Of a DNA stretch of 18,018 nt, positions 1,299 to 14,016 are shown piece by piece (the first letter of the stretch is position 1; the number at the start of each line of letters is the position of its first letter). The DNA lies in the UHGV virus genome UHGV-1603728, one strand, 5' to 3'. The notes beneath the pieces are model-generated. The model was not told where the DNA came from. It worked only from the letters and a program-made list of their open reading frames with translations, and ran no database searches. The translations under genes were made by a program, and so were the position numbers. The DNA is from a virus.

Positions 1299-1633
1299 TT
1301 CATAAAGCAACAAATTACGCGGTAATCGCTTAACGCAGTTTTACTACGTTAAATGAAACACTACACCCAGTTACCACCTAAAACAAGATTTTCCCATAAA
1401 AAAACCTTCATATCGTGGTTAATCGATCAATAAAAAAGCAATGTTCAACTTTTTACCAACCGAACATCCCGACCAGGACTTCCATAATATTCGCCGATAT
1501 GCCACTGCTTAAGTTGAGTAATCTTCTCCAACTTAACTCCCATAGAGTCCAGTTTCTGCCATGTTTTCGGTTGTATGTGCTTCATTACCCGCTCTGAATA
1601 TCTGAATACTGCTCGTAAGCGCATGGTTTCTCA

Positions 1634-4515: not shown

Positions 4516-4793
4516 GCCACAGCCCCTCTCAACGGCTTAACTTTGGCTAATAAGGTGTTAAACAACATGGAGTTAGGATTCATGCCAAATGGCAATTCCG
4601 GTTTAGCGGAGTAGTACAGGCAACCATTTATTTTCCTGGTTGTTATCTGTCCTTCGGCAACCATGCTTCTCAGTCTGCAACGCATAGAGTTCTGCGACAC
4701 ACCAATGTGCTCCGCGATTACGTCCACTTTTGAACATGGGTGATCGGTCAGGAAATTAATCACATCTTGGGGGTTAATAATTTTGCGTTTCAT
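4512..4793 (-). CDS. Small winged-helix-like DNA-binding protein
   Basis: Start trimmed to MKRKIINPQ (ATG 4793, SD AAGGA upstream). The segment VDVIAEHIGVSQNSMRCRLRSMVAEGQI looks like a wHTH. An iteron cluster sits directly upstream. Confidence 0.5.
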   Translation of the reverse strand: MKRKIINPQDVINFLTDHPCSKVDVIAEHIGVSQNSMRCRLRSMVAEGQITTRKINGCLYYSAKPELPFGMNPNSMLFNTLLAKVKPLRGAVA

Positions 4794-4807
4794 TGTCGAG
4801 GCGTCCT

Positions 4808-4840
4808 TATACATTTATATAAATATATAATTCTATATAC
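4808..4840. promoter_or_regulatory. AT-rich iteron cluster S1 (TATAGATTT / TATATAA-type units) upstream of the wHTH gene
   Basis: tatacatttatataaatatataattctatatac matches the iteron family that flanks parA/parG. A 7-bp hairpin follows at 4841-4858. Confidence 0.4.
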
Positions 4841-4870
4841 GGCGGGAGACATCCCGCCGTAGGCTTACTG

Positions 4871-5938
4871 TCAGGCTTTCAATAGCGATTCTTTCAGATA
4901 TCGGGCATCAGCCAGGGCGTTTGGAGTAATCTTGCGAACCCATGCATTACGGGTTGGACTCCACTTAAAGGCGCGTGATTTAAGCAGCGAACGAATGTTT
5001 GCCTCTGGTTTGCCAGGGAAATAAAACAGGATGCGGTTATCCTCTGGATCTATCTCCATAGAAAAGCCGTCGTATTCTTCGCGCTGTGCTCCTGTTACAG
5101 ACTTGACCGATTCAAGCTCCTTAATACGGCTCTGTAGTCGTTTGATTTCGGCGTTATTGTTGCTCAGTACGTATGAAGGGAATCCGATGCGCCCACAGAA
5201 ATCTCCGGCCAGTAACTCTTTGGCTTCGCTTTCTGTAAACCTGAGATCGATTAATGCAGAAAGCTGCTGTAATTGGTCTTTTTTGTATTTGCGAATAGCC
5301 TTATTTGCGGCCTTCATTTTGACGTGTGACTTCATGCAGCCTTGCAGCTTACGAAGCAACTTAAATAGCGCATCAGGATCATCAGACGAAATTCCATTAC
5401 GACCAACACCTGCGGCTTTGCTCTCGTAGTGTGATGCTTTACTTTCGCATTCAACAAACGCTTTTCTTAATAACGCATCAGCTTTAGACAAACGGCGGCG
5501 ATGGCCTTTCGCGCTATAATGGTCAACTAAAATCGGCTGGCCTAACGGGATCACATCCAACAGGTCATGCGCTCGCTTATGCGCTACCGCACCTTCTTTT
5601 CTGGCTTTTTCTGCACGAGCAATATATCGGGCAAGACGCGCGTTCTGGCGTTCCTGATAGGTGTTTACGTAATCATCTCCGCGCTGCTGCTGTTCAAGCC
5701 ATGCTTTGCGCAGATCTTCTGTTACGTCCACCAGCTCCGCAGGGATACAACCAGTTTGGGCTTCATAAGAGTAACCATCCTCATAGATACGCCCATCATC
5801 TTCAACAAAGAAAAAGGTTTCGTGCTCATCGCTTTTGACCATACGACCATTAACATGGCGTAATAGGTAGCCAGTATCAGTGCTTAACAGGCTGTTAGGG
5901 TTGTTGATCCAGTCAGAAATAATTACTTGTTTATTCAT
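4871..5938 (-). CDS. Hypothetical protein, 355 aa (possibly DUF3560-like)
   Basis: Long ORF with SD GGAG 7 nt upstream. It sits directly downstream of the 102-bp promoter/leader repeat and the iteron palindrome. Confidence 0.55.
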   Translation of the reverse strand: MNKQVIISDWINNPNSLLSTDTGYLLRHVNGRMVKSDEHETFFFVEDDGRIYEDGYSYEAQTGCIPAELVDVTEDLRKAWLEQQQRGDDYVNTYQERQNARLARYIARAEKARKEGAVAHKRAHDLLDVIPLGQPILVDHYSAKGHRRRLSKADALLRKAFVECESKASHYESKAAGVGRNGISSDDPDALFKLLRKLQGCMKSHVKMKAANKAIRKYKKDQLQQLSALIDLRFTESEAKELLAGDFCGRIGFPSYVLSNNNAEIKRLQSRIKELESVKSVTGAQREEYDGFSMEIDPEDNRILFYFPGKPEANIRSLLKSRAFKWSPTRNAWVRKITPNALADARYLKESLLKA

Positions 5939-7455: not shown

Positions 7456-7967
7456 TGATGGCCCCCGTCATTTCTGGTGCTTTTCACCGTGCGGCTTCTT
7501 AAAAACCTGCCATCACGAACAACAGACACTTCTCGTTTACCCAACCTCATTTCACGGCGGTAACATTCAGAAAATGCCTCGTCCGGCATCATATAAATGC
7601 GACGCTTCGCCTCCGTATCCAGAAGGGAACGGCTTGGGGTTACATATAAAAACGACTCATCAATAGGGACAAAACCACGAGCAAGAATTGCTGGCAGAAT
7701 GCCAGGAAGAACGCAGAAAACAGCTCCACGATGCAGCAACATCTGGTACTCCATGACCTCCGTTATCCCCGTGACTACTGTTACGGTGTCACGTCTGTTA
7801 CGGCTGGCAACCAGTCGCTGCACACGTCCAATTTTCTGATCTACAGATAGATGTTTGCTATCGTTATCAATATGATCGATAACAAATCCTTTAATCGTTT
7901 GATCAAGGTAGTGCACCACCTTCGATTGAATCTGGTGATTATCACCAAAGAAGGCCAGAATCATCAT
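7452..7967 (-). CDS. Hypothetical nin-region-like protein (171 aa)
   Basis: ORF whose ATG overlaps the Cro-like gene stop (ATGA); part of the overlapping-gene operon. Confidence 0.5.
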   Translation of the reverse strand: MMILAFFGDNHQIQSKVVHYLDQTIKGFVIDHIDNDSKHLSVDQKIGRVQRLVASRNRRDTVTVVTGITEVMEYQMLLHRGAVFCVLPGILPAILARGFVPIDESFLYVTPSRSLLDTEAKRRIYMMPDEAFSECYRREMRLGKREVSVVRDGRFLRSRTVKSTRNDGGHQ

Positions 7968-8458
7968 TCCTCAAGCCTCCCAAGTGCTGAACGCCGGGCG
8001 TTGCTAATCTCCTTATGAATCAGCTCGATATCGCTGGAATCTTTATTCTTAAACTCCAGCACGGCAATCGCATCACGAACCTCTGAAACGGTTACGTGTG
8101 AGTGTTTCCAGCGAGCAATGAATCGCGGACCGCGTAGATTGCAACGCTCCGCAGGCATCCCCAGCTCAGAGAAAACCGCTTTCAGCCTTGATAAGCAGTT
8201 AACAGGGAGATTCCCTTTGATCTTGTTCTGCCGAACCGATGTGCCATCGCTACGCTGGCGCTGACGTTCGGCAAAATCTGCCGCCCATTGCTGGACGTTA
8301 ATCCGGCCTTCCGAATACGCCACCAGCAGCGTCAGGTTATCCGCACGAGGGAATCTCTCGAAGCGATACCAGGCACCAATCAGTGATGACGTAAAGCCAA
8401 ACTTTCTGGCAACACCAATTTGGCCTCCATTTTCGTCAACCCACTCCTGAAAGGTCAT
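7964..8458 (-). CDS. Cro/YdaS-like HTH regulator with a roughly 100-aa C-terminal extension
   Basis: N-terminus WVDENGGQIGVARKFGFTSSLIGAWY matches the Cro/YdaS HTH pattern. It is divergent from the CI-like gene, with operators and a putative promoter upstream. Confidence 0.5.
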   Translation of the reverse strand: MTFQEWVDENGGQIGVARKFGFTSSLIGAWYRFERFPRADNLTLLVAYSEGRINVQQWAADFAERQRQRSDGTSVRQNKIKGNLPVNCLSRLKAVFSELGMPAERCNLRGPRFIARWKHSHVTVSEVRDAIAVLEFKNKDSSDIELIHKEISNARRSALGRLEE

Positions 8459-8477
8459 TTAACGAACTCCAGTTAAA

Positions 8478-8513
8478 ACCACGATATGTGGTATTAAAAC
8501 CACATATCGTGAG
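8478..8513. promoter_or_regulatory. Operators O1 (ACCACgatatGTGGT) and O2 (ACCACatatcGTGag), forming a 13-bp-arm inverted repeat
   Basis: 8479-8491 and 8500-8512 are reverse complements at 12 of 13 positions. They overlap the putative leftward promoter (-35 TTGAAA at 8521..8516, -10 TTTAAT at 8498..8493). Confidence 0.5.
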
Positions 8514-8580
8514 TTTTTCAATGGGCGAAACAAAAAATAACCTTCTATTTGTGGTCCACCTCTCGTCTTACCATGTGAAA

Positions 8581-8595
8581 ACCACTAAATGTGGT
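8581..8595. promoter_or_regulatory. Operator O3 (ACCACtaaatGTGGT) upstream of the CI-like gene
   Basis: Perfect half-site palindrome of the same family, about 40 bp upstream of the CI-like start. Confidence 0.5.
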
Positions 8596-8632
8596 AATGT
8601 ATAAATAACCCACCATTCACGATTGATGAGAC

Positions 8633-9289
8633 ATGAAAAGCAACGACGAGAACATCAAGAAAGAAATAGGTCTGCGCATTCAGACTCTACGGAAACAATC
8701 CGGCATGACTGCCGGAGATCTCCAGCAAGTCACTGGAATAGGCTTAAGCACCTTGCAGAACTATGAGGCCGGATTAAGACAACCATCTATACCTGCCATC
8801 AAGAAAATCGCGCACGCCCTGAAAGCATCAGCGCCTTATATCGCGTGCTTAACAGATAACCCGTTCCCACCCCAGAATACTAACGCTCCTGTTATTCCTG
8901 GGCTTGTAGCTATAAAAAATGACATAGCATCGCACGCCGGAGAAAAGCCAGTGCTGGCGATAGAACAGGAGATTCTACGAAGCAAGAACATCAACCCATC
9001 GTCTCTGTCAGTTCTCCAGAGCAACGATGAGTTAATGTCACCAACAATATCCCCAGGCTCCCAAGTCCTGATTAATACAGACGATACAGAGATTCATGAG
9101 GGGATCTATGCCCTTGAAGACAGAAATGGCCTGGTTGTTTTGAGGCACTGTAGAGTCATACCGGGTGACAATGCTGTTATGCTGTCAACCGAAAGGGATG
9201 CTGAAATGAACACTAAGCATCTGAATAACGAGGAATTTAAGCGTTATAAAGTTCTGGGCCGCGTAGTTAGTGTTGTCAACTGGTTATGA
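8633..9289 (+). CDS. CI-like repressor: N-terminal XRE HTH plus C-terminal S24 (LexA-like) peptidase-fold domain
   Basis: HTH segment LRKQSGMTAGDLQQVTGIGLSTLQNYEAG. The C-terminus (ELMSPT ... NGLVVLRHCRV ... GRVVSVVNWL) parallels the LexA/CI C-terminal domain. Confidence 0.7.
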   Translation: MKSNDENIKKEIGLRIQTLRKQSGMTAGDLQQVTGIGLSTLQNYEAGLRQPSIPAIKKIAHALKASAPYIACLTDNPFPPQNTNAPVIPGLVAIKNDIASHAGEKPVLAIEQEILRSKNINPSSLSVLQSNDELMSPTISPGSQVLINTDDTEIHEGIYALEDRNGLVVLRHCRVIPGDNAVMLSTERDAEMNTKHLNNEEFKRYKVLGRVVSVVNWL

Positions 9290-9331
9290 TACACAGCACG
9301 GCGAAAGCCGTGCATTTCTACGCTCAAAAAA

Positions 9332-9346
9332 ACCACGCTTTGTGGT
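9332..9346. promoter_or_regulatory. Operator O4 (ACCACgctttGTGGT) upstream of the 124-aa gene
   Basis: Same ACCAC-N5-GTGGT family; TTGACA follows immediately at 9348-9353. Confidence 0.45.
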
Positions 9347-9381
9347 TTTGACAACATGTGAAAGTATAAAAGAGGCTACGC

Positions 9382-9756
9382 ATGGAATTACATACAGCCA
9401 ATAAAAACGAAACTCTGATCACTGCTGGAATCGAAATCCAAGCGTTGAACATAGCGATTGAGTGTATGTTATGCCAAATCATTGATAATGAGAAAGATAT
9501 CGACTGGATAGAATCTATCCTTCATCTGGCATCAGAACAAAAAGTCTGCCTCAAAACGGCCTTACAATACGATGTGCCAGCGGTATCGAAGCTGTGCCAG
9601 CCATTGATGGCATATAACAGGGCTATTATTTCTGTATGCCTCATGATTCTCGATGAAAACACCCCTCTTAGCGACCGCTCAGAAGCTGCTCTAACCCTCT
9701 CACGTAAACAGCGACAGCTAGCAAATCAACTGATATCAACGATAGCTGACCTCTGA
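9382..9756 (+). CDS. Hypothetical protein (124 aa)
   Basis: ORF with SD AGAGG 6 nt upstream, followed by an 8-bp hairpin at 9759-9780. Confidence 0.45.
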   Translation: MELHTANKNETLITAGIEIQALNIAIECMLCQIIDNEKDIDWIESILHLASEQKVCLKTALQYDVPAVSKLCQPLMAYNRAIISVCLMILDENTPLSDRSEAALTLSRKQRQLANQLISTIADL

Positions 9757-9782
9757 CTGCAAGCGGGCTAACGCCCGCTTAT

Positions 9783-9882
9783 ATGATTATAGATTTATAT
9801 AATTATATAAAACGCTTTTCATCAGCCAAAAAGTTGGTTATGCTTACCTCGTTCTATAAATATAGATTTATAGAATTATATA
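9783..9882. promoter_or_regulatory. Iteron clusters S3 and S4 upstream of parA (centromere/operator-like)
   Basis: ttatagatttatataattatataa (9787-9810) and ctataaatatagatttatagaattatataa (9854-9882), made of TATAGATTT and TATATAA units in both orientations. Confidence 0.5.
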
Positions 9883-9906
9883 ACCAAACACATGGAGTCT
9901 CGACAA

Positions 9907-10560
9907 ATGACTATCTCTGTAGGTATTTTCAACGGAAAAGGCGGCGTAACCAAATCAACAATTGCCCGTGCTTTAGCAGTTGCTTATGCAAAGGCCGGCT
10001 GGAATGTATGCCTGATCGATATGGATGTGCTTAACGGAACGGTAACGCGTTGGGTACAACGCAGAATGGCCAACAATATCGAACCTGCAATCGCGGCGCA
10101 GCCGTGCGGCACACCATCACAAGTCCAGAAAATCATCGAATCAGAAGTATACGACCTGGTTATCGTCGATGGCGGTGCCTACGCATCTGAATCAGTACCG
10201 AAGCTCTCTGAATTTCTGGATATGGTTATTTTGCCAACCAGATTCTCTACCGATGACCTGGAAACCACCGTTAACACAGCTCATGGCATCGTTAAAAAGG
10301 GTGTGCCAATCAAGAAAATTTGCATGGTGTTCTCAGGCGCGGCTGAAAACGAAGCCGACTACATTGAAGCCCAAGAGTACCTGGCTAATACGCCATACTT
10401 TGTTGTCGATAAGTACATTCCCCACAAGCCAGCTCTGAGCAAAGCTCAGGATAAGGGCTTAAGCCTCATTGAGTGCTCATACGTTGCGCCACGCAAAAAG
10501 GCAGACGACGTTATTCAGGGGATTATCAACCAGCTTGAGGCTCTGACTACTGCCGCGTAA
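9907..10560 (+). CDS. ParA/ParF-family partition ATPase (small ParA with deviant Walker A)
   Basis: Deviant Walker A KGGVTKST near the N-terminus, about 218 aa, no N-terminal HTH. SD GGAG upstream of ATG 9907. Confidence 0.8.
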   Translation: MTISVGIFNGKGGVTKSTIARALAVAYAKAGWNVCLIDMDVLNGTVTRWVQRRMANNIEPAIAAQPCGTPSQVQKIIESEVYDLVIVDGGAYASESVPKLSEFLDMVILPTRFSTDDLETTVNTAHGIVKKGVPIKKICMVFSGAAENEADYIEAQEYLANTPYFVVDKYIPHKPALSKAQDKGLSLIECSYVAPRKKADDVIQGIINQLEALTTAA

Positions 10561-10591
10561 TATATAATTATAGTTTTATAGATTTATATAA
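10559..10591. promoter_or_regulatory. Iteron cluster S5 between parA and the ParG-like gene
   Basis: tatataattatagttttatagatttatataa, the same unit family as S2-S4. Confidence 0.45.
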
Positions 10592-10603
10592 GAGGGGATA
10601 CAC

Positions 10604-10852
10604 ATGGCCGCACCATCAAAACCACCAAAGAAGAACAGCAAAGGCGTACCGCCATCGATCGAACAACCGCAGGTTTTCGACCCGACTGAAACGCCAACCA
10701 GAACCAAATCAGGTGGGGCACAAATGGCGTTTAACGTCGACCCTGAATTTAAACGTGAGTACAAAACATTCGCCAGCTCAATGGATATGTCATTGAAAGA
10801 AGTGCTGACAAAATCTTTTGAGTTACTCAAGGCTCAATACAACCAGAAGTAA
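10604..10852 (+). CDS. ParG-like ribbon-helix-helix centromere-binding protein
   Basis: 82 aa, directly downstream of the ParA-like gene. The C-terminus AFNVDPEFKREYKTFASSMDMSLKEVLTKSFELLK follows the RHH pattern of ParG (VNFDEEKHTRFKAACARKGTSITDVVNQLV). SD AGAGGGG upstream. Confidence 0.6.
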   Translation: MAAPSKPPKKNSKGVPPSIEQPQVFDPTETPTRTKSGGAQMAFNVDPEFKREYKTFASSMDMSLKEVLTKSFELLKAQYNQK

Positions 10853-11074: not shown

Positions 11075-11098
11075 AAAAAAAGGCCCCCGAAGGGGCCT
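11075..11098 (-). terminator. Intrinsic terminator (7-bp GC stem, CGAA loop), effective mainly on the minus strand
   Basis: AGGCCCC-cgaa-GGGGCCU with a run of 7 T on the minus strand, directly downstream of the small hydrophobic ORF. Confidence 0.6.
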
Positions 11099-11103
11099 AA
11101 TCG

Positions 11104-11226
11104 CTACTTGCTGCTAATGTTTATCGTCACATTCAGAGCGTTATCAGTAATCTTCCAACCCTCCCCATGTGGCGTAAACAAAGCTCCAGTAACAACGATA
11201 AAAATACACATGTAGTATTTTTTCAT
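11104..11226 (-). CDS. Small hydrophobic peptide (40 aa), candidate type I toxin
   Basis: MKKYYMCIFIVVTGALFTPHGEGWKITDNALNVTINISSK has one N-terminal hydrophobic helix. It is followed by a terminator and preceded by a long 5' leader containing a 20-nt box complementary to a divergent RNA. Confidence 0.35.
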   Translation of the reverse strand: MKKYYMCIFIVVTGALFTPHGEGWKITDNALNVTINISSK

Positions 11227-11290
11227 TGTGTGGCCCTTACAGGCCGTTTCACGGCATCCCCACCGACGAAAATGTCGCGAGAGCAAGCAC

Positions 11291-11310
11291 GCTGTTTGTG
11301 CCTGCGTGGT
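11291..11310. repeat. 20-nt box copy 1 (GCTGTTTGTGCCTGCGTGGT), in the putative leader of the small-peptide mRNA
   Basis: Identical at 19 of 20 positions to 11541-11560. Confidence 0.6.
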
Positions 11311-11498
11311 ACGGCAAGTGGATAATCCTTTCCTGAAAGTCAGTGCCCGGGTGCGAATCGGCGGAAAGGCCCCAAGCCATATTACACGTCATACCCTTCA
11401 TAATGAAGGAATAAAAAACGCTTTTATTACATAAGATTACACGTAAATAAGTTAAAAACCTTCATTTTGCATGAGCTAATGAGCTAAATTTTTTTATA

Positions 11499-11516: not shown

Positions 11517-11643
11517 CCTCAGTTGGGTAAGAATGTAGTTGCTGTTTGTGCTTGCGTGGTTGTATTAGTACAACGACGTTATGCTGAAAGGACCGCGAAT
11601 CCGATCAGCACGAAAGAACCGTCCTCAATAGGGCGGTTTTTTT
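11500..11643 (+). ncRNA. Candidate antisense sRNA (antitoxin-like) containing box copy 2 (11541-11560) and ending at an intrinsic terminator
   Basis: No credible ORF. Box copy 2 read on the plus strand is complementary to the minus-strand transcript at box copy 1 (19 Watson-Crick pairs and 1 G-U). The 5' end is not defined. Confidence 0.3.
11617..11643 (+). terminator. Rho-independent terminator (plus strand)
   Basis: 9-bp stem AACCGUCCU / AGGGCGGUU with loop CAAU, followed by a run of 7 T. Confidence 0.65.
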
Positions 11644-12197
11644 GTTTCTCCCCCTTCCTTCCCAAATGATTCAAATGTTAATGAGAGAGAATCATTTGAT
11701 ATGTTCGATTTAGCGCCGTTATCGACCCAATTTCTGTATGCTTCATCACAACAGTACCTTACAGCAGTTGGAATAACAGGAGAGCCGCCCAGAAATGAAA
11801 ATCCCATTGAGCTTATGCTAATTCTTTCGAATGGCCTATTTCTCAATGCTTCAAATCCCTTGCTGTTGAAGTAACTCAGCATCAGAGGTAAAAGGTTATC
11901 CTCGTCTTGACTGATTGTTCCCGGGAAAAAGTAGTAACCATGGCGATTAAATTCGGGAATCAGTTTTTCTACCAACAACATGAAATTCATTGGGGTAATA
12001 TTAAGGGCAGAGCAAGCACCAAAAAGAGCATCAACCGTTAATACAGACTGTCCGTTCTCTATCTTTGTCCATGCGTTTGGTGTTTTTCCAGCAGCTTGAG
12101 CCAGCACTCCTTGATGCACACCTCTTTCTAGCCTAAGTTCTTTTATGATCATTAGGTGGATTGTTGAAAAACATGAGTTTTTTGACGTTTCAGTCAT
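11625..12197 (-). CDS. XRE-family HTH regulator with a C-terminal domain of unknown function
   Basis: Start trimmed to MTETSK (ATG 12197, SD GGGGAT upstream). HTH segment IKELRLERGVHQGVLAQAAGKTPNAWTKIENGQ. Divergent from the antirepressor operon. Confidence 0.55.
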   Translation of the reverse strand: MTETSKNSCFSTIHLMIIKELRLERGVHQGVLAQAAGKTPNAWTKIENGQSVLTVDALFGACSALNITPMNFMLLVEKLIPEFNRHGYYFFPGTISQDEDNLLPLMLSYFNSKGFEALRNRPFERISISSMGFSFLGGSPVIPTAVRYCCDEAYRNWVDNGAKSNISNDSLSLTFESFGKEGGETKKPPY

Positions 12198-12335
12198 TTT
12201 TTTATCCCCATATTGAATTTTTTCCTTGTTCCCAACTTTAACAAAACACCACAACTCAGGATTGAGTCATTCCTTACAGGAACTATACATTCCCGTCTTT
12301 GGTATATCAAGAAAATTAAAAGCTCGGCATTCAAA

Positions 12336-12350
12336 CCCACACTATGTGGT
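12336..12350. promoter_or_regulatory. Operator O5 (cCCACactatGTGGT) between the HTH gene and the antirepressor operon
   Basis: Same ACCAC-N5-GTGGT family as the sites around the CI-like gene. TTGACA lies at 12375-12380. Confidence 0.4.
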
Positions 12351-12513
12351 TTAGTCTGTTAAAATCCCTCTGTATTGACATGAATGCGCCATTGGTGGAC
12401 ACTTTCCGAGCCGTAGCAAAATCTACGGTCGGGATTAGCCTCCTGAATAACACGATGGCGCATACCGCGTTAGCGGTTTTTTTTATGCGTAGAGCACTGT
12501 TACGCCCAAATTA

Positions 12514-12592
12514 TGGTGGGTCGTACAGGGGCGGAGAAATCCGCGCCGGTTCGTCATTGTGTCCGGTAAGGCTAACCCTGTACGGCTCACCA
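12514..12592 (+). ncRNA. Structured RNA element resembling phage P1 c4 antisense RNA
   Basis: 17-bp closing stem (12514-12530 with 12576-12592) enclosing a GAAA-tetraloop hairpin (12531-12544) and a hairpin with a 13-nt loop (12546-12566). Loop sequences are complementary to flanking target boxes and to the start codon of the downstream small ORF. Confidence 0.4.
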
Positions 12593-12646
12593 CCATTTGA
12601 TTAGCCTCGAATGGCGGTGATAGTTCCATATACTGGAGATATCACA

Positions 12647-12838
12647 ATGACAAACCTACCCCATGACTATTACGTCAACCTCGTAAAGATCCTTCTCAAG
12701 AAAGCCTCATACGCCGATAAATTCCGCCTGGCTGAAATCATCGAGCGCGAAGCTATGCGCATCGCCAGCAACGATAACGCTGTTTCTGACGCAAAAATCT
12801 CCCTCGTAACCAAAGTAGTTATGGGAGGTGCAAAATGA
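12647..12838 (+). CDS. Small protein translationally coupled to the antirepressor (icd-like position)
   Basis: ATG 12647 with SD GGAG 8 nt upstream; its stop overlaps the antirepressor ATG (ATGA). An alternative ATG at 12611 has no SD. Confidence 0.45.
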   Translation: MTNLPHDYYVNLVKILLKKASYADKFRLAEIIEREAMRIASNDNAVSDAKISLVTKVVMGGAK

Positions 12839-14016
12839 AAACGCTTCCGACCGTTAACACCCTACAGCCTATCCTGCATAACCAAATCCCCGTTATCACT
12901 ACTGAACTACTGGCAAAGCTATACGGCACAGACGTTGATAACATCAAAAAAAATTACTCACGTAACGCAAACCGCTTTATTGAAGGAAAGCATTTTTTCA
13001 AAGTGGCTGGCGATGAGTTAAAAACTTTGCGAGTGACTTTAAGTCACTCACAAAATTTGCGACTGGTTTTAAACGAGTCACAAAATGAGGTGCAAATTTC
13101 CCCCAAAACTCGCTCTCTCATCCTCTGGACAGAACGCGGGGCTGCACGTCACGCCAAAATGCTTGAAACTAACCAAGCGTGGGATGTGTTCGAACGGCTG
13201 GAAGACTGCTACTTCAACCAGAACGCGCAAACGGCCGCGACCGTTACCGTCTCGCCAAACAATGCTCGTGAGGTTGTCGATACGCTCAACGCCAAACCGA
13301 TGTTTTACATTAAAGTGTGCAACAACGAGCCACTCACAACCTCAGCCGATGTTGCCCAGGCATTCAGCACCACAAACAATTCCATCGTTATGGCCATCGA
13401 TGCGCTACGCATTCCTCGCACGGCTGCGGCGCGTCACTTCTTTAAAGAGCAACGACCGCTGGAAGGAAGCGACCGCGAAATAACAATCTATCGCATGACA
13501 AAAGACGGATTTACCTTACTCATGGAGAGCATCGACGGTCCAAGCGTGAAAGATATCAAGCTGGCCTACATTGAAGCCTTTAACGCTATCAGCAGCGTGT
13601 TAAAAACACAGTACGAGCGTGATCTGGCTAAACGACTGTACCAGGAAAAAACGATTATCCGCGCGGCAACAGAGCATAATCGGCTATTAACGGAACCGAA
13701 CTACAGGAAGGAACTAATCAAGGAGTTTGACAAGGCAACAGGGAAAACCAAAGCGGCGCTAAATCTGCCAGCAATGACTCAGGAAAATGTGATATCAGCC
13801 TTACTTCTTGATCTGCTCAGAAACGCCAGAGCACTGATCAGCTTTGACGAAAACCTGAATCCTCAGCTCAAGCTACTACCACCGACAGGCAAAGTAGTCG
13901 ACCAGGCAGATCACAACAGCATACTCAGCGTACTGGATGCAAACCTACCAGCCAGGACACTACAGGAACTGATAAAGATATCGGCGGATAAACTGGCCGC
14001 AGGTGCAAAACCATAA
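12835..14016 (+). CDS. Phage antirepressor (ORF6N/KilA-type N-terminal region with Rha-like central domain)
   Basis: N-terminus PVITTELLAKLYGTDVDNIKKNYSRNANRFIEGKHFF is ORF6N-like; the centre PLTTSADVAQAFSTTNNSIVMAIDAL is Rha/Ant-like. 393 aa, SD GGAGG 6 nt upstream. Confidence 0.75.
   Translation: MKTLPTVNTLQPILHNQIPVITTELLAKLYGTDVDNIKKNYSRNANRFIEGKHFFKVAGDELKTLRVTLSHSQNLRLVLNESQNEVQISPKTRSLILWTERGAARHAKMLETNQAWDVFERLEDCYFNQNAQTAATVTVSPNNAREVVDTLNAKPMFYIKVCNNEPLTTSADVAQAFSTTNNSIVMAIDALRIPRTAAARHFFKEQRPLEGSDREITIYRMTKDGFTLLMESIDGPSVKDIKLAYIEAFNAISSVLKTQYERDLAKRLYQEKTIIRAATEHNRLLTEPNYRKELIKEFDKATGKTKAALNLPAMTQENVISALLLDLLRNARALISFDENLNPQLKLLPPTGKVVDQADHNSILSVLDANLPARTLQELIKISADKLAAGAKP

Follow-up and report, generated by a model that had tools for sequence, protein, structure and literature searches.

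An 18,018-nucleotide stretch of viral DNA, UHGV virus genome UHGV-1603728 (the whole of which is called the window here), contains five palindromic 15-base-pair (bp) sites of the form ACCAC-N5-GTGGT, and these probably serve as operators for the immunity repressor that the element itself encodes, a CI-like protein (8633-9289). An earlier note on this DNA had listed the five sites, placing three between cI and a divergent, Cro-like gene (of 164 amino acids [aa]), one before a 124-aa gene, and one before an antirepressor module. In its reading a single repressor, with CI as the most parsimonious choice, governs the leftward operon, the 124-aa gene and the antirepressor operon. The repeated sites are real, since a matrix built from other genera recovered all five, and their places are as described. 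Conservation of the sites and a recognition helix shared by the CI proteins lend support to the proposal of a single repressor. A sixth site, absent from the earlier list, lies outside the window, upstream of the replication gene repA.

The repeated sites and their conservation

The window is part of a phage-plasmid. Its region 7900-9800 is 99.4 to 99.7% identical to circular plasmids of about 46 to 49 kb in 71 of 5426 complete Escherichia coli genomes, a family frequency of about 1.3% that includes the reference strain ATCC 25922 with its plasmid NZ_CP009073.1, and 73 of the 74 matching places in complete E. coli genomes are on plasmids. The Yersinia phages vB_YpM_39, 41 and 44 are equally close to this region. 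One plasmid record, NZ_CP151070.1, holds an IncFII-type repA, a parA partition module and toxin-antitoxin genes together with a head module, a P2-like tail module and lysis genes; the joint presence of plasmid, head, tail and lysis modules identifies the element as a phage-plasmid. Relatives were traced via the CI protein and the first early protein, the product of the 164-aa gene. They comprise Salmonella pAR-0407-1, with a CI 65% identical, one element each from Citrobacter, Enterobacter and Yokenella, and two Serratia plasmids with a CI about 33% identical.

With at most one mismatch allowed, the core pattern ACCACNNNNNGTGGT matched four times in the window against 0.26 expected, a count that none of 200 shuffles reached. 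The matches at 8478, 8581 and 9332 are perfect and that at 12336 has one mismatch; in the whole plasmid there were eight matches against 0.91 expected. The site at 8499-8513 has two core mismatches, and at that stringency nine matches were found against 5.0 expected, which is not significant, so that the core pattern alone is no proof of this site. All the sites have an A-rich 5' flank and a T-rich 3' flank. We included these flanks in a 21-bp matrix (AAA-ACCAC-N5-GTGGT-TTT), trained on Salmonella, Citrobacter, Enterobacter and Yokenella sites only. Its scores are given in Table 1; the site at 8499 ranked third of five. The next-best position reached 12.4 bits in the window and 14.1 bits in the whole plasmid, where six sites scored at least 25.6 bits. 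The reverse test, with a matrix made from the six E. coli sites, returned the orthologous sites in the four other genera at 21 to 31 bits. The earlier note had also raised the density of the motif in the host, and over 100 kb of E. coli K-12 (MG1655) the matrix maximum was 6.6 bits. To our knowledge, and short of a systematic search, the operator sequence is unrelated to any known one.

The sites are orthologous in the Salmonella, Citrobacter, Enterobacter and Yokenella relatives, and their variation follows a clear pattern. Across the five lineages, 4 of 60 half-site columns are variable, compared with 21 of 30 columns in the central 5 bp (Fisher p 6e-10). The inner A/T flank columns vary in 6 of 36 cases and the outer flanks in 23 of 36. 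Among 13 near-identical loci of the E. coli lineage, changes inside the sites are confined to the spacer, and the invariant blocks in the intergenic alignments are the half-sites. To judge from these alignments, fixed half-sites with a free spacer are the signature of a dimeric protein bound to two 5-bp half-sites one helical turn apart. With 10 bp between their centers, the half-sites suit a dimeric helix-turn-helix (HTH) protein of the XRE type.

The earlier note had also pointed to a larger inverted repeat here, and indeed sites 1 and 2 together form one with arms of 13 to 14 bp. The palindromes might be RNA or DNA hairpins, with the 13-bp-arm structure at 8480-8511 serving as a terminator in the leader of the early operon. 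Terminator-like predictions do fall on both strands, and the leader RNA folds at -27.8 kcal/mol (z -5.8), with a strong hairpin in Salmonella too. We consider this very improbable, however, for the pairing of the spacers is lost in Citrobacter, Enterobacter and Yokenella (three of the five lineages) with no compensatory changes, while the half-sites are fixed. The long hairpin is thus a by-product of two adjacent palindromes. Single sites would give only A/U-rich stems of 5 to 8 bp, the predicted transcription start site falls inside the structure, and identical half-sites at six unlinked loci are unexpected for terminators.

Conservation and position also bear on the idea that the sites serve plasmid partition as its centromere or are bound by a host regulator. 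In its favor are the plasmid nature of the element and the place of site 4, about 560 bp upstream of parA, but parA is flanked by 8-bp iterons of its own, TTATAGAT and TTATATAA (9771-9891 and 10560-10599). No site comparable to the operators occurs in the 100 kb of K-12 chromosome, and the Serratia half-sites change together with the phage proteins. Either assignment is therefore barely credible, and binding by a repressor of the element itself is preferred. The iterons form three clusters flanking parA (9771-9818, 9844-9891 and 10560-10599). They are probably the centromere and autoregulatory sites of a type Ib partition system, and the 82-aa gene at 10604-10852 probably encodes the centromere-binding protein.

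Table 1. Operator sites, hybrid sites and associated features; coordinates are window positions unless an accession is given
Feature	Position	Strand	Matrix score (bits)	Description
Second hybrid site, ACCACGATATGAAGG	1405-1419	-	12.4	12 to 17 bits in all five lineages
First leftward early gene E1, 164 aa	7964-8458	-		cro position; putative DNA-binding function
Operator site 1, ACCACGATATGTGGT	8478-8492		30.3	Perfect match; orthologue in all five lineages
Predicted leftward early promoter P_L	8493-8521	-		-35 TTGAAA (8521-8516), 17-bp spacer, -10 TTTAAT (8498-8493); predicted from sequence
Operator site 2, ACCACATATCGTGAG	8499-8513		26.6	Fills the 17-bp spacer of predicted P_L
Hybrid site, ACCACAAATAGAAGG	8541-8555	-		Centered ~62 bp upstream of predicted P_L start
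Operator site 3, ACCACTAAATGTGGT	8581-8595		25.6	Perfect match; 4 bp before TATAAA box (8600-8605) upstream of cI
cI-like repressor gene, 218 aa	8633-9289	+		HTH_3 domain and LexA-like C-terminal domain
Intrinsic terminator after cI	9296-9319	+		GCACGGC-GAAA-GCCGTGC then ATTTCT; read from sequence
Operator site 4, ACCACGCTTTGTGGT	9332-9346		31.1 (best in window)	Perfect match; between cI terminator and 124-aa gene; in all lineages
124-aa gene	9382-9756	+		PHROG 7632; position conserved in all relatives
Operator site 5, CCCACACTATGTGGT	12336-12350		25.6	One mismatch; over -35 region of extended -10 promoter TGtTAAAAT (12357-12365)
immI leader RNAs	12397-12597	+		putative a1/b1 target and IsrK-like RNA with terminator (12397-12483); C4 antisense RNA (12509-12597)
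63-aa open reading frame in icd position	12647-12838	+		Overlaps ant start at 12835; PHROG 7886, a family without assigned function
Antirepressor gene	12835-14016	+		ORF6N and Rha domains; RefSeq annotation
Sixth operator, ACCACGTAACGTGGT	NZ_CP151070.1, 49209-49223 (outside window)			Perfect match; ~190 bp upstream of repA

Candidate binding proteins

The CI-like protein matches the Pfam domains HTH_3 (E 4.5e-11) and HTH_31 (E 2.8e-09) and, over residues 4 to 217, the PHROG_4 transcriptional repressor family (E 9.6e-27). Among solved structures its relatives were generic XRE domains only, at E 2e-4 or worse. The recognition helix GLSTLQNYEAG is common to the Salmonella, Citrobacter, Enterobacter and Yokenella relatives, and STLQNYEAG is invariant in all relatives. 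In the Serratia CI proteins, PR stands in place of GL just before STLQNYEAG, and the Serratia half-sites are likewise altered, to ACTACA, ACTGCA and ACCTCA. The sites, with their conservation and positions, and the domain content of the proteins are thus observed, whereas the identity of the binding protein, the promoter assignments and the direction of regulation given below are inferred.

The C-terminal part of CI scored 18.4 bits with Peptidase_S24, below the 23.3-bit cut-off. In an alignment with LexA and lambda CI, Leu replaces the catalytic Ser, Arg replaces the Lys, and there is no Ala-Gly. Since the LexA-type catalytic residues are lacking, the antirepressor, and not RecA-stimulated self-cleavage, is the probable means of CI inactivation. 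The window showed no LexA box; its seven one-mismatch matches, none of them in a regulatory region, compare with 5.1 expected. LexA control of the antirepressor or of the switch was rejected for this reason and, together with the noncatalytic CI, the lack of a LexA box makes induction via the antirepressor the likely route.

The 164-aa first early protein could recognize the sites in place of CI, or could alone recognize some of them, the candidates being site 3 and the two hybrid sites of the form ACCAC-N5-GAAGG described below. Its gene occupies the cro position, and its residues 1 to 70 match a stand-alone 72-aa protein that is encoded divergently from a CI-like gene on a Vibrio plasmid. 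It co-varies with the operators across lineages as CI does. Site 3 has a uniquely conserved spacer, and each of the hybrid sites precedes a leftward promoter, with equal distance and orientation in the two cases. In phiKO2 and PY54, moreover, Cro is confined to the operator beside the repressor gene (PMC4997575). However, the protein had no match in Pfam (E up to 10), NCBIfam or PDB, no HTH family was detected, and its structure model is poor and unreliable (predicted local distance difference test score [pLDDT], 61.8). Where distal operators have been documented at repA or at an antirepressor operon, the prophage repressor targets them and Cro does not (PMC4997575, PMC8198154), and a lysogen needs these promoters repressed while the early operon is off. 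We therefore hold the 164-aa protein to be an unlikely binder and prefer CI. The label Cro-like, given to it in the earlier note, has behind it only the position of the gene and the 72-aa Vibrio homologue in the cro position; no HTH family matched.

A search of genome contigs with the 164-aa protein alignment gave no matches, and the same alignment searched against viral contigs returned only near-identical loci and one Salmonella-type locus. The Vibrio alginolyticus plasmid NZ_CP054702.1 carries a distant relative of the switch at 4784-5001, with the CI-like gene divergent from the 72-aa homologue of the 164-aa N terminus. The intergenic region there contains an inverted repeat with 15-bp arms, AACACGATTCGGGAG ... 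CTCCCGAAATGTGTT, and TGTGGTAA half-sites.

As a further alternative, the earlier note had named the XRE protein encoded at 11625-12197. It could bind all the sites or at least site 5, which is in its own divergent promoter region. In its favor are its HTH_3 domain and the nearness of site 5 to a good minus-strand promoter of the XRE gene, TTGATA-17-TATAGT, the site being 26 bp upstream of the -35 box. The distribution of the gene refutes this proposal, to which we attach practically no probability. No more than 15 of the 59 family plasmids have the gene in full, and site 5 and its promoter persist where it is missing, in pRHB41-C23_4 alongside a 100% identical CI. The XRE-less Citrobacter, Enterobacter and Yokenella elements keep the equivalent of site 5 and all other sites. 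Plasmids that have the gene and plasmids that lack it become homologous precisely from the left edge of site 5 onward, and ATCC 25922 has the same site beside a different allele and different upstream DNA. The XRE-family gene (190 aa; region 11625-12330) is accessory cargo, with no family match for the C-terminal two-thirds of its product and a divergent allele in ATCC 25922. Between the partition module and this gene, the minus strand at 11076-11374 gave a full-length match (135.4 bits, with a gathering threshold of 80) to the RNA family ryfA, a toxin-encoding small RNA locus.

Promoters and genes at the sites

The 174-bp intergenic region between the 164-aa gene and cI holds sites 1 to 3 and one hybrid site. 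Site 1 lies just downstream of the predicted -10 box of the leftward early promoter P_L, over the predicted start site, and its center is 21 bp from that of site 2. The geometry of P_L is also found in the Salmonella (TTGATA) and Serratia relatives, the latter with better -10 boxes (TATTTT and TATCTT), and the placement of an operator in the promoter spacer is conserved in six lineages. The orthologues of site 2 end in GTGGG, and among E. coli plasmids only its central 5 bp vary. By bracketing the P_L -10 box, sites 1 and 2 would keep the early promoter silent in the prophage. Only in site 3 is the spacer conserved (TAAAT or TTAAT). Lying over the putative cI core promoter, it could serve negative autoregulation or be the target of a lytic regulator.

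The stem of the cI terminator is conserved, and its T-run is better in other lineages. In site 4, just beyond it, the spacer (9337-9341) has three alleles, GCTTT, GATTT and ATTTT, in plasmids whose surrounding 100 bp otherwise agree at about 99%; this unusual concentration of variation may tune operator affinity. The 124-aa protein is predicted to be a four-helix bundle (AlphaFold pLDDT, 90.5). It was assigned to no sequence family, and its Foldseek matches were generic helical bundles only. Site 4 may control the rightward 124-aa gene or may be a looping anchor for the switch sites.

The antirepressor module is, beyond what the earlier note recognized, a P1-type immI operon with IsrK and C4 RNAs. 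The extended -10 promoter at site 5 is invariant in 15 loci and lies upstream of the conserved TTGACA promoter (12375-12380) of this operon. Citrobacter, Enterobacter and Yokenella have an equivalent of the site, ACCACAATG[CT]GTGAT. The leader matched Rfam isrK at 65.7 bits (gathering 50), with a terminator predicted at 12464-12477, and RF01695 C4 over its full length at 70.8 bits (gathering 45). RF03163 c4-a1b1 scored 35.7 bits (E 6.9e-06), below its gathering threshold of 46.7, and overlaps the above-threshold isrK match. The antirepressor matched Pfam ORF6N (E 1.1e-20), Phage_pRha (E 1.5e-12) and PHROG anti-repressor families at E values down to 4.5e-60. Through site 5, CI would control the upstream immI promoter. 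If CI represses ant and Ant inactivates CI, a double-negative loop would result, damped by the C4 RNA and the IsrK terminator.

The IsrK/C4 antirepressor cassette is widespread in Stx and other lambdoid phages. The IsrK/C4 region of the window (12366-12660) is 79.5% identical to Yersinia phage vB_YpM_39, versus 99.6% in the switch region 7900-9800. By analogy with P1 and P7, the low identity suggests an exchange of C4 specificity alleles.

The sixth site is kept in the Salmonella, Citrobacter and Enterobacter relatives (four lineages). A conserved extended -10 box, TG[GA]TAGAGT, immediately precedes it, and a CopA-like stem-loop follows downstream. The site covers the putative start site of the repA promoter, and CI would act on replication as well.

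The two hybrid sites, likewise absent from the earlier note, join one operator half-site to a different one, ACCAC-N5-GAAGG. Exact matches number two in the window, where 0.03 would be expected, and the rest of the 49-kb plasmid has none, though the pattern was chosen with the data in view. The site at 8541-8555 is a conserved block in all five lineages. The center spacings from site 1 through site 2 and the hybrid site to site 3 are 21, 42 and 40 bp, near whole helical turns. The second hybrid site is in a minus-strand leader (1265-1460) before the holin genes, followed there by a promoter-like element, TTGTTT-17-TAGTGT, a conserved stem-loop and a strong terminator directly before the holin ribosome-binding site. 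Both hybrid sites have the same orientation, 19 nucleotides (P_L) and 18 nucleotides (late leader) upstream of the -35-like box of a leftward promoter. They may be weak sites in a cooperative CI array, or sites for an activator at about -62. The second of these possibilities, with the sites at the classical activator position of about -61.5 and bound either by a second element protein (for example, the 164-aa protein) or by CI as an activator, seems to us rather unlikely. If true, one half-site vocabulary would serve two ends in a single compact circuit: the switch, the antirepressor and replication would be repressed through it, and early and lysis transcription would be activated. The late leader itself resembles, by analogy, the lambda PR'-tR' leader, which needs antitermination. 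A GcvB-like Rfam match at 1269-1426 (34.9 versus 42 bits, below threshold) was discarded, as it is probably due to the terminator and U-rich stretches.

Several points weigh against CI as the common repressor of these promoters. The first early protein co-varies with CI, so that sequence comparison cannot separate the two as binders of each site. The assignment of P_L is tentative in the E. coli lineage; its -10 box, TTTAAT, has a T and not the usual A at position 2, for which reason promoter prediction left it out. Neither promoter prediction nor reading of the sequence placed a convincing sigma-70 promoter for cI or for the 124-aa gene. Salmonella pAR-0407-1 and the Serratia relatives lack site 5, so that not every member of the family has immI under this control. 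If CI represses repA strongly, it must still leave some expression, or the plasmid would be lost. In the searchable literature we found no binding, transcription or induction data for the element, and nothing on the regulation of vB_YpM_39-like elements. HQ103 is an unrelated 32-kb phage.

Relation to known phages and phage-plasmids

The switch is like the CI/Cro switches of lambda, 434 and P22 in that an HTH repressor gene is divergent from an early lytic operon, with palindromic operators over the divergent promoters. Also shared with lambdoid switches are an operator-controlled unit beyond the repressor gene and a two-domain repressor with a LexA-like C terminus. Unlike the lambdoid repressors, the CI of this element is without the catalytic Ser, the Lys and the Ala-Gly. 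The gene in the cro position is 164 aa long with no detectable HTH, and the prophage is a plasmid rather than integrated.

With the immI of P1 and P7, the element shares a C4 antisense RNA with a putative upstream target, a small, candidate icd-like open reading frame that overlaps the antirepressor gene, and a plasmid prophage. As in P1, an operator (here a predicted one) of the master repressor precedes the antirepressor operon; the repressor family differs from P1 C1. The operators of P1 C1 are asymmetric 17-bp sequences, whereas the repressor of this element is a predicted dimer of the XRE/CI type with palindromic sites. An IsrK-like RNA precedes C4, the antirepressor is of the ORF6N/Rha type, and the virion genes specify a P2-like tail and an HK97-like head, all unlike P1. 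Repression of its own antirepressor by a phage repressor is already documented in P1, where C1 represses the c4-icd-ant operon (PMC8198154).

The CB repressors of N15 and phiKO2 are non-cleavable. They occupy operators at the repA promoter and reduce copy number, which is thereby coupled to immunity, and induction occurs via an antirepressor (PMC4997575). The element has in common with them a CI-like repressor that is probably non-cleavable and a predicted operator at the repA promoter. It differs in its circular records, in an IncFII-type RepA (PF02387) with a CopA-like stem-loop and in having no telomerase annotated. Its operators are 15-bp ACCAC-N5-GTGGT rather than 16-bp T-A-N10-T-A sequences, with a single repA site rather than two. 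Its antirepressor operon carries a repressor operator, and there is no LexA box in the window, again unlike N15 and phiKO2. The element would work like N15 and phiKO2 but is not a member of their family.

The Gifsy-1 isrK-orf45-anrP locus of Salmonella combines an IsrK RNA with a leaky terminator, a small open reading frame, an antirepressor and a processed C4-type RNA (PMC4825925). Counterparts of these are present here, the terminator included. No repressor operator upstream of isrK is described in that study (PMC4825925), whereas this element has an extra, predicted operator-controlled promoter before the TTGACA promoter.

The element brings known modules together in a new way, with an operator sequence that is new as well, and belongs to neither the P1 nor the N15 family; nor is its family among the ten typed phage-plasmid groups (PMC12977533). 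It illustrates modular evolution, a widespread IsrK/C4 cassette having gained an operator that matches the repressor already in residence. Lambda, P1 and N15 have already supplied the principles, and the finding is of value for annotation and as a convenient experimental system rather than for any new concept. The operator map amounts to a directly testable wiring diagram, in which one non-cleavable repressor appears to couple the lysis-lysogeny switch, the antirepressor operon and the replication gene.

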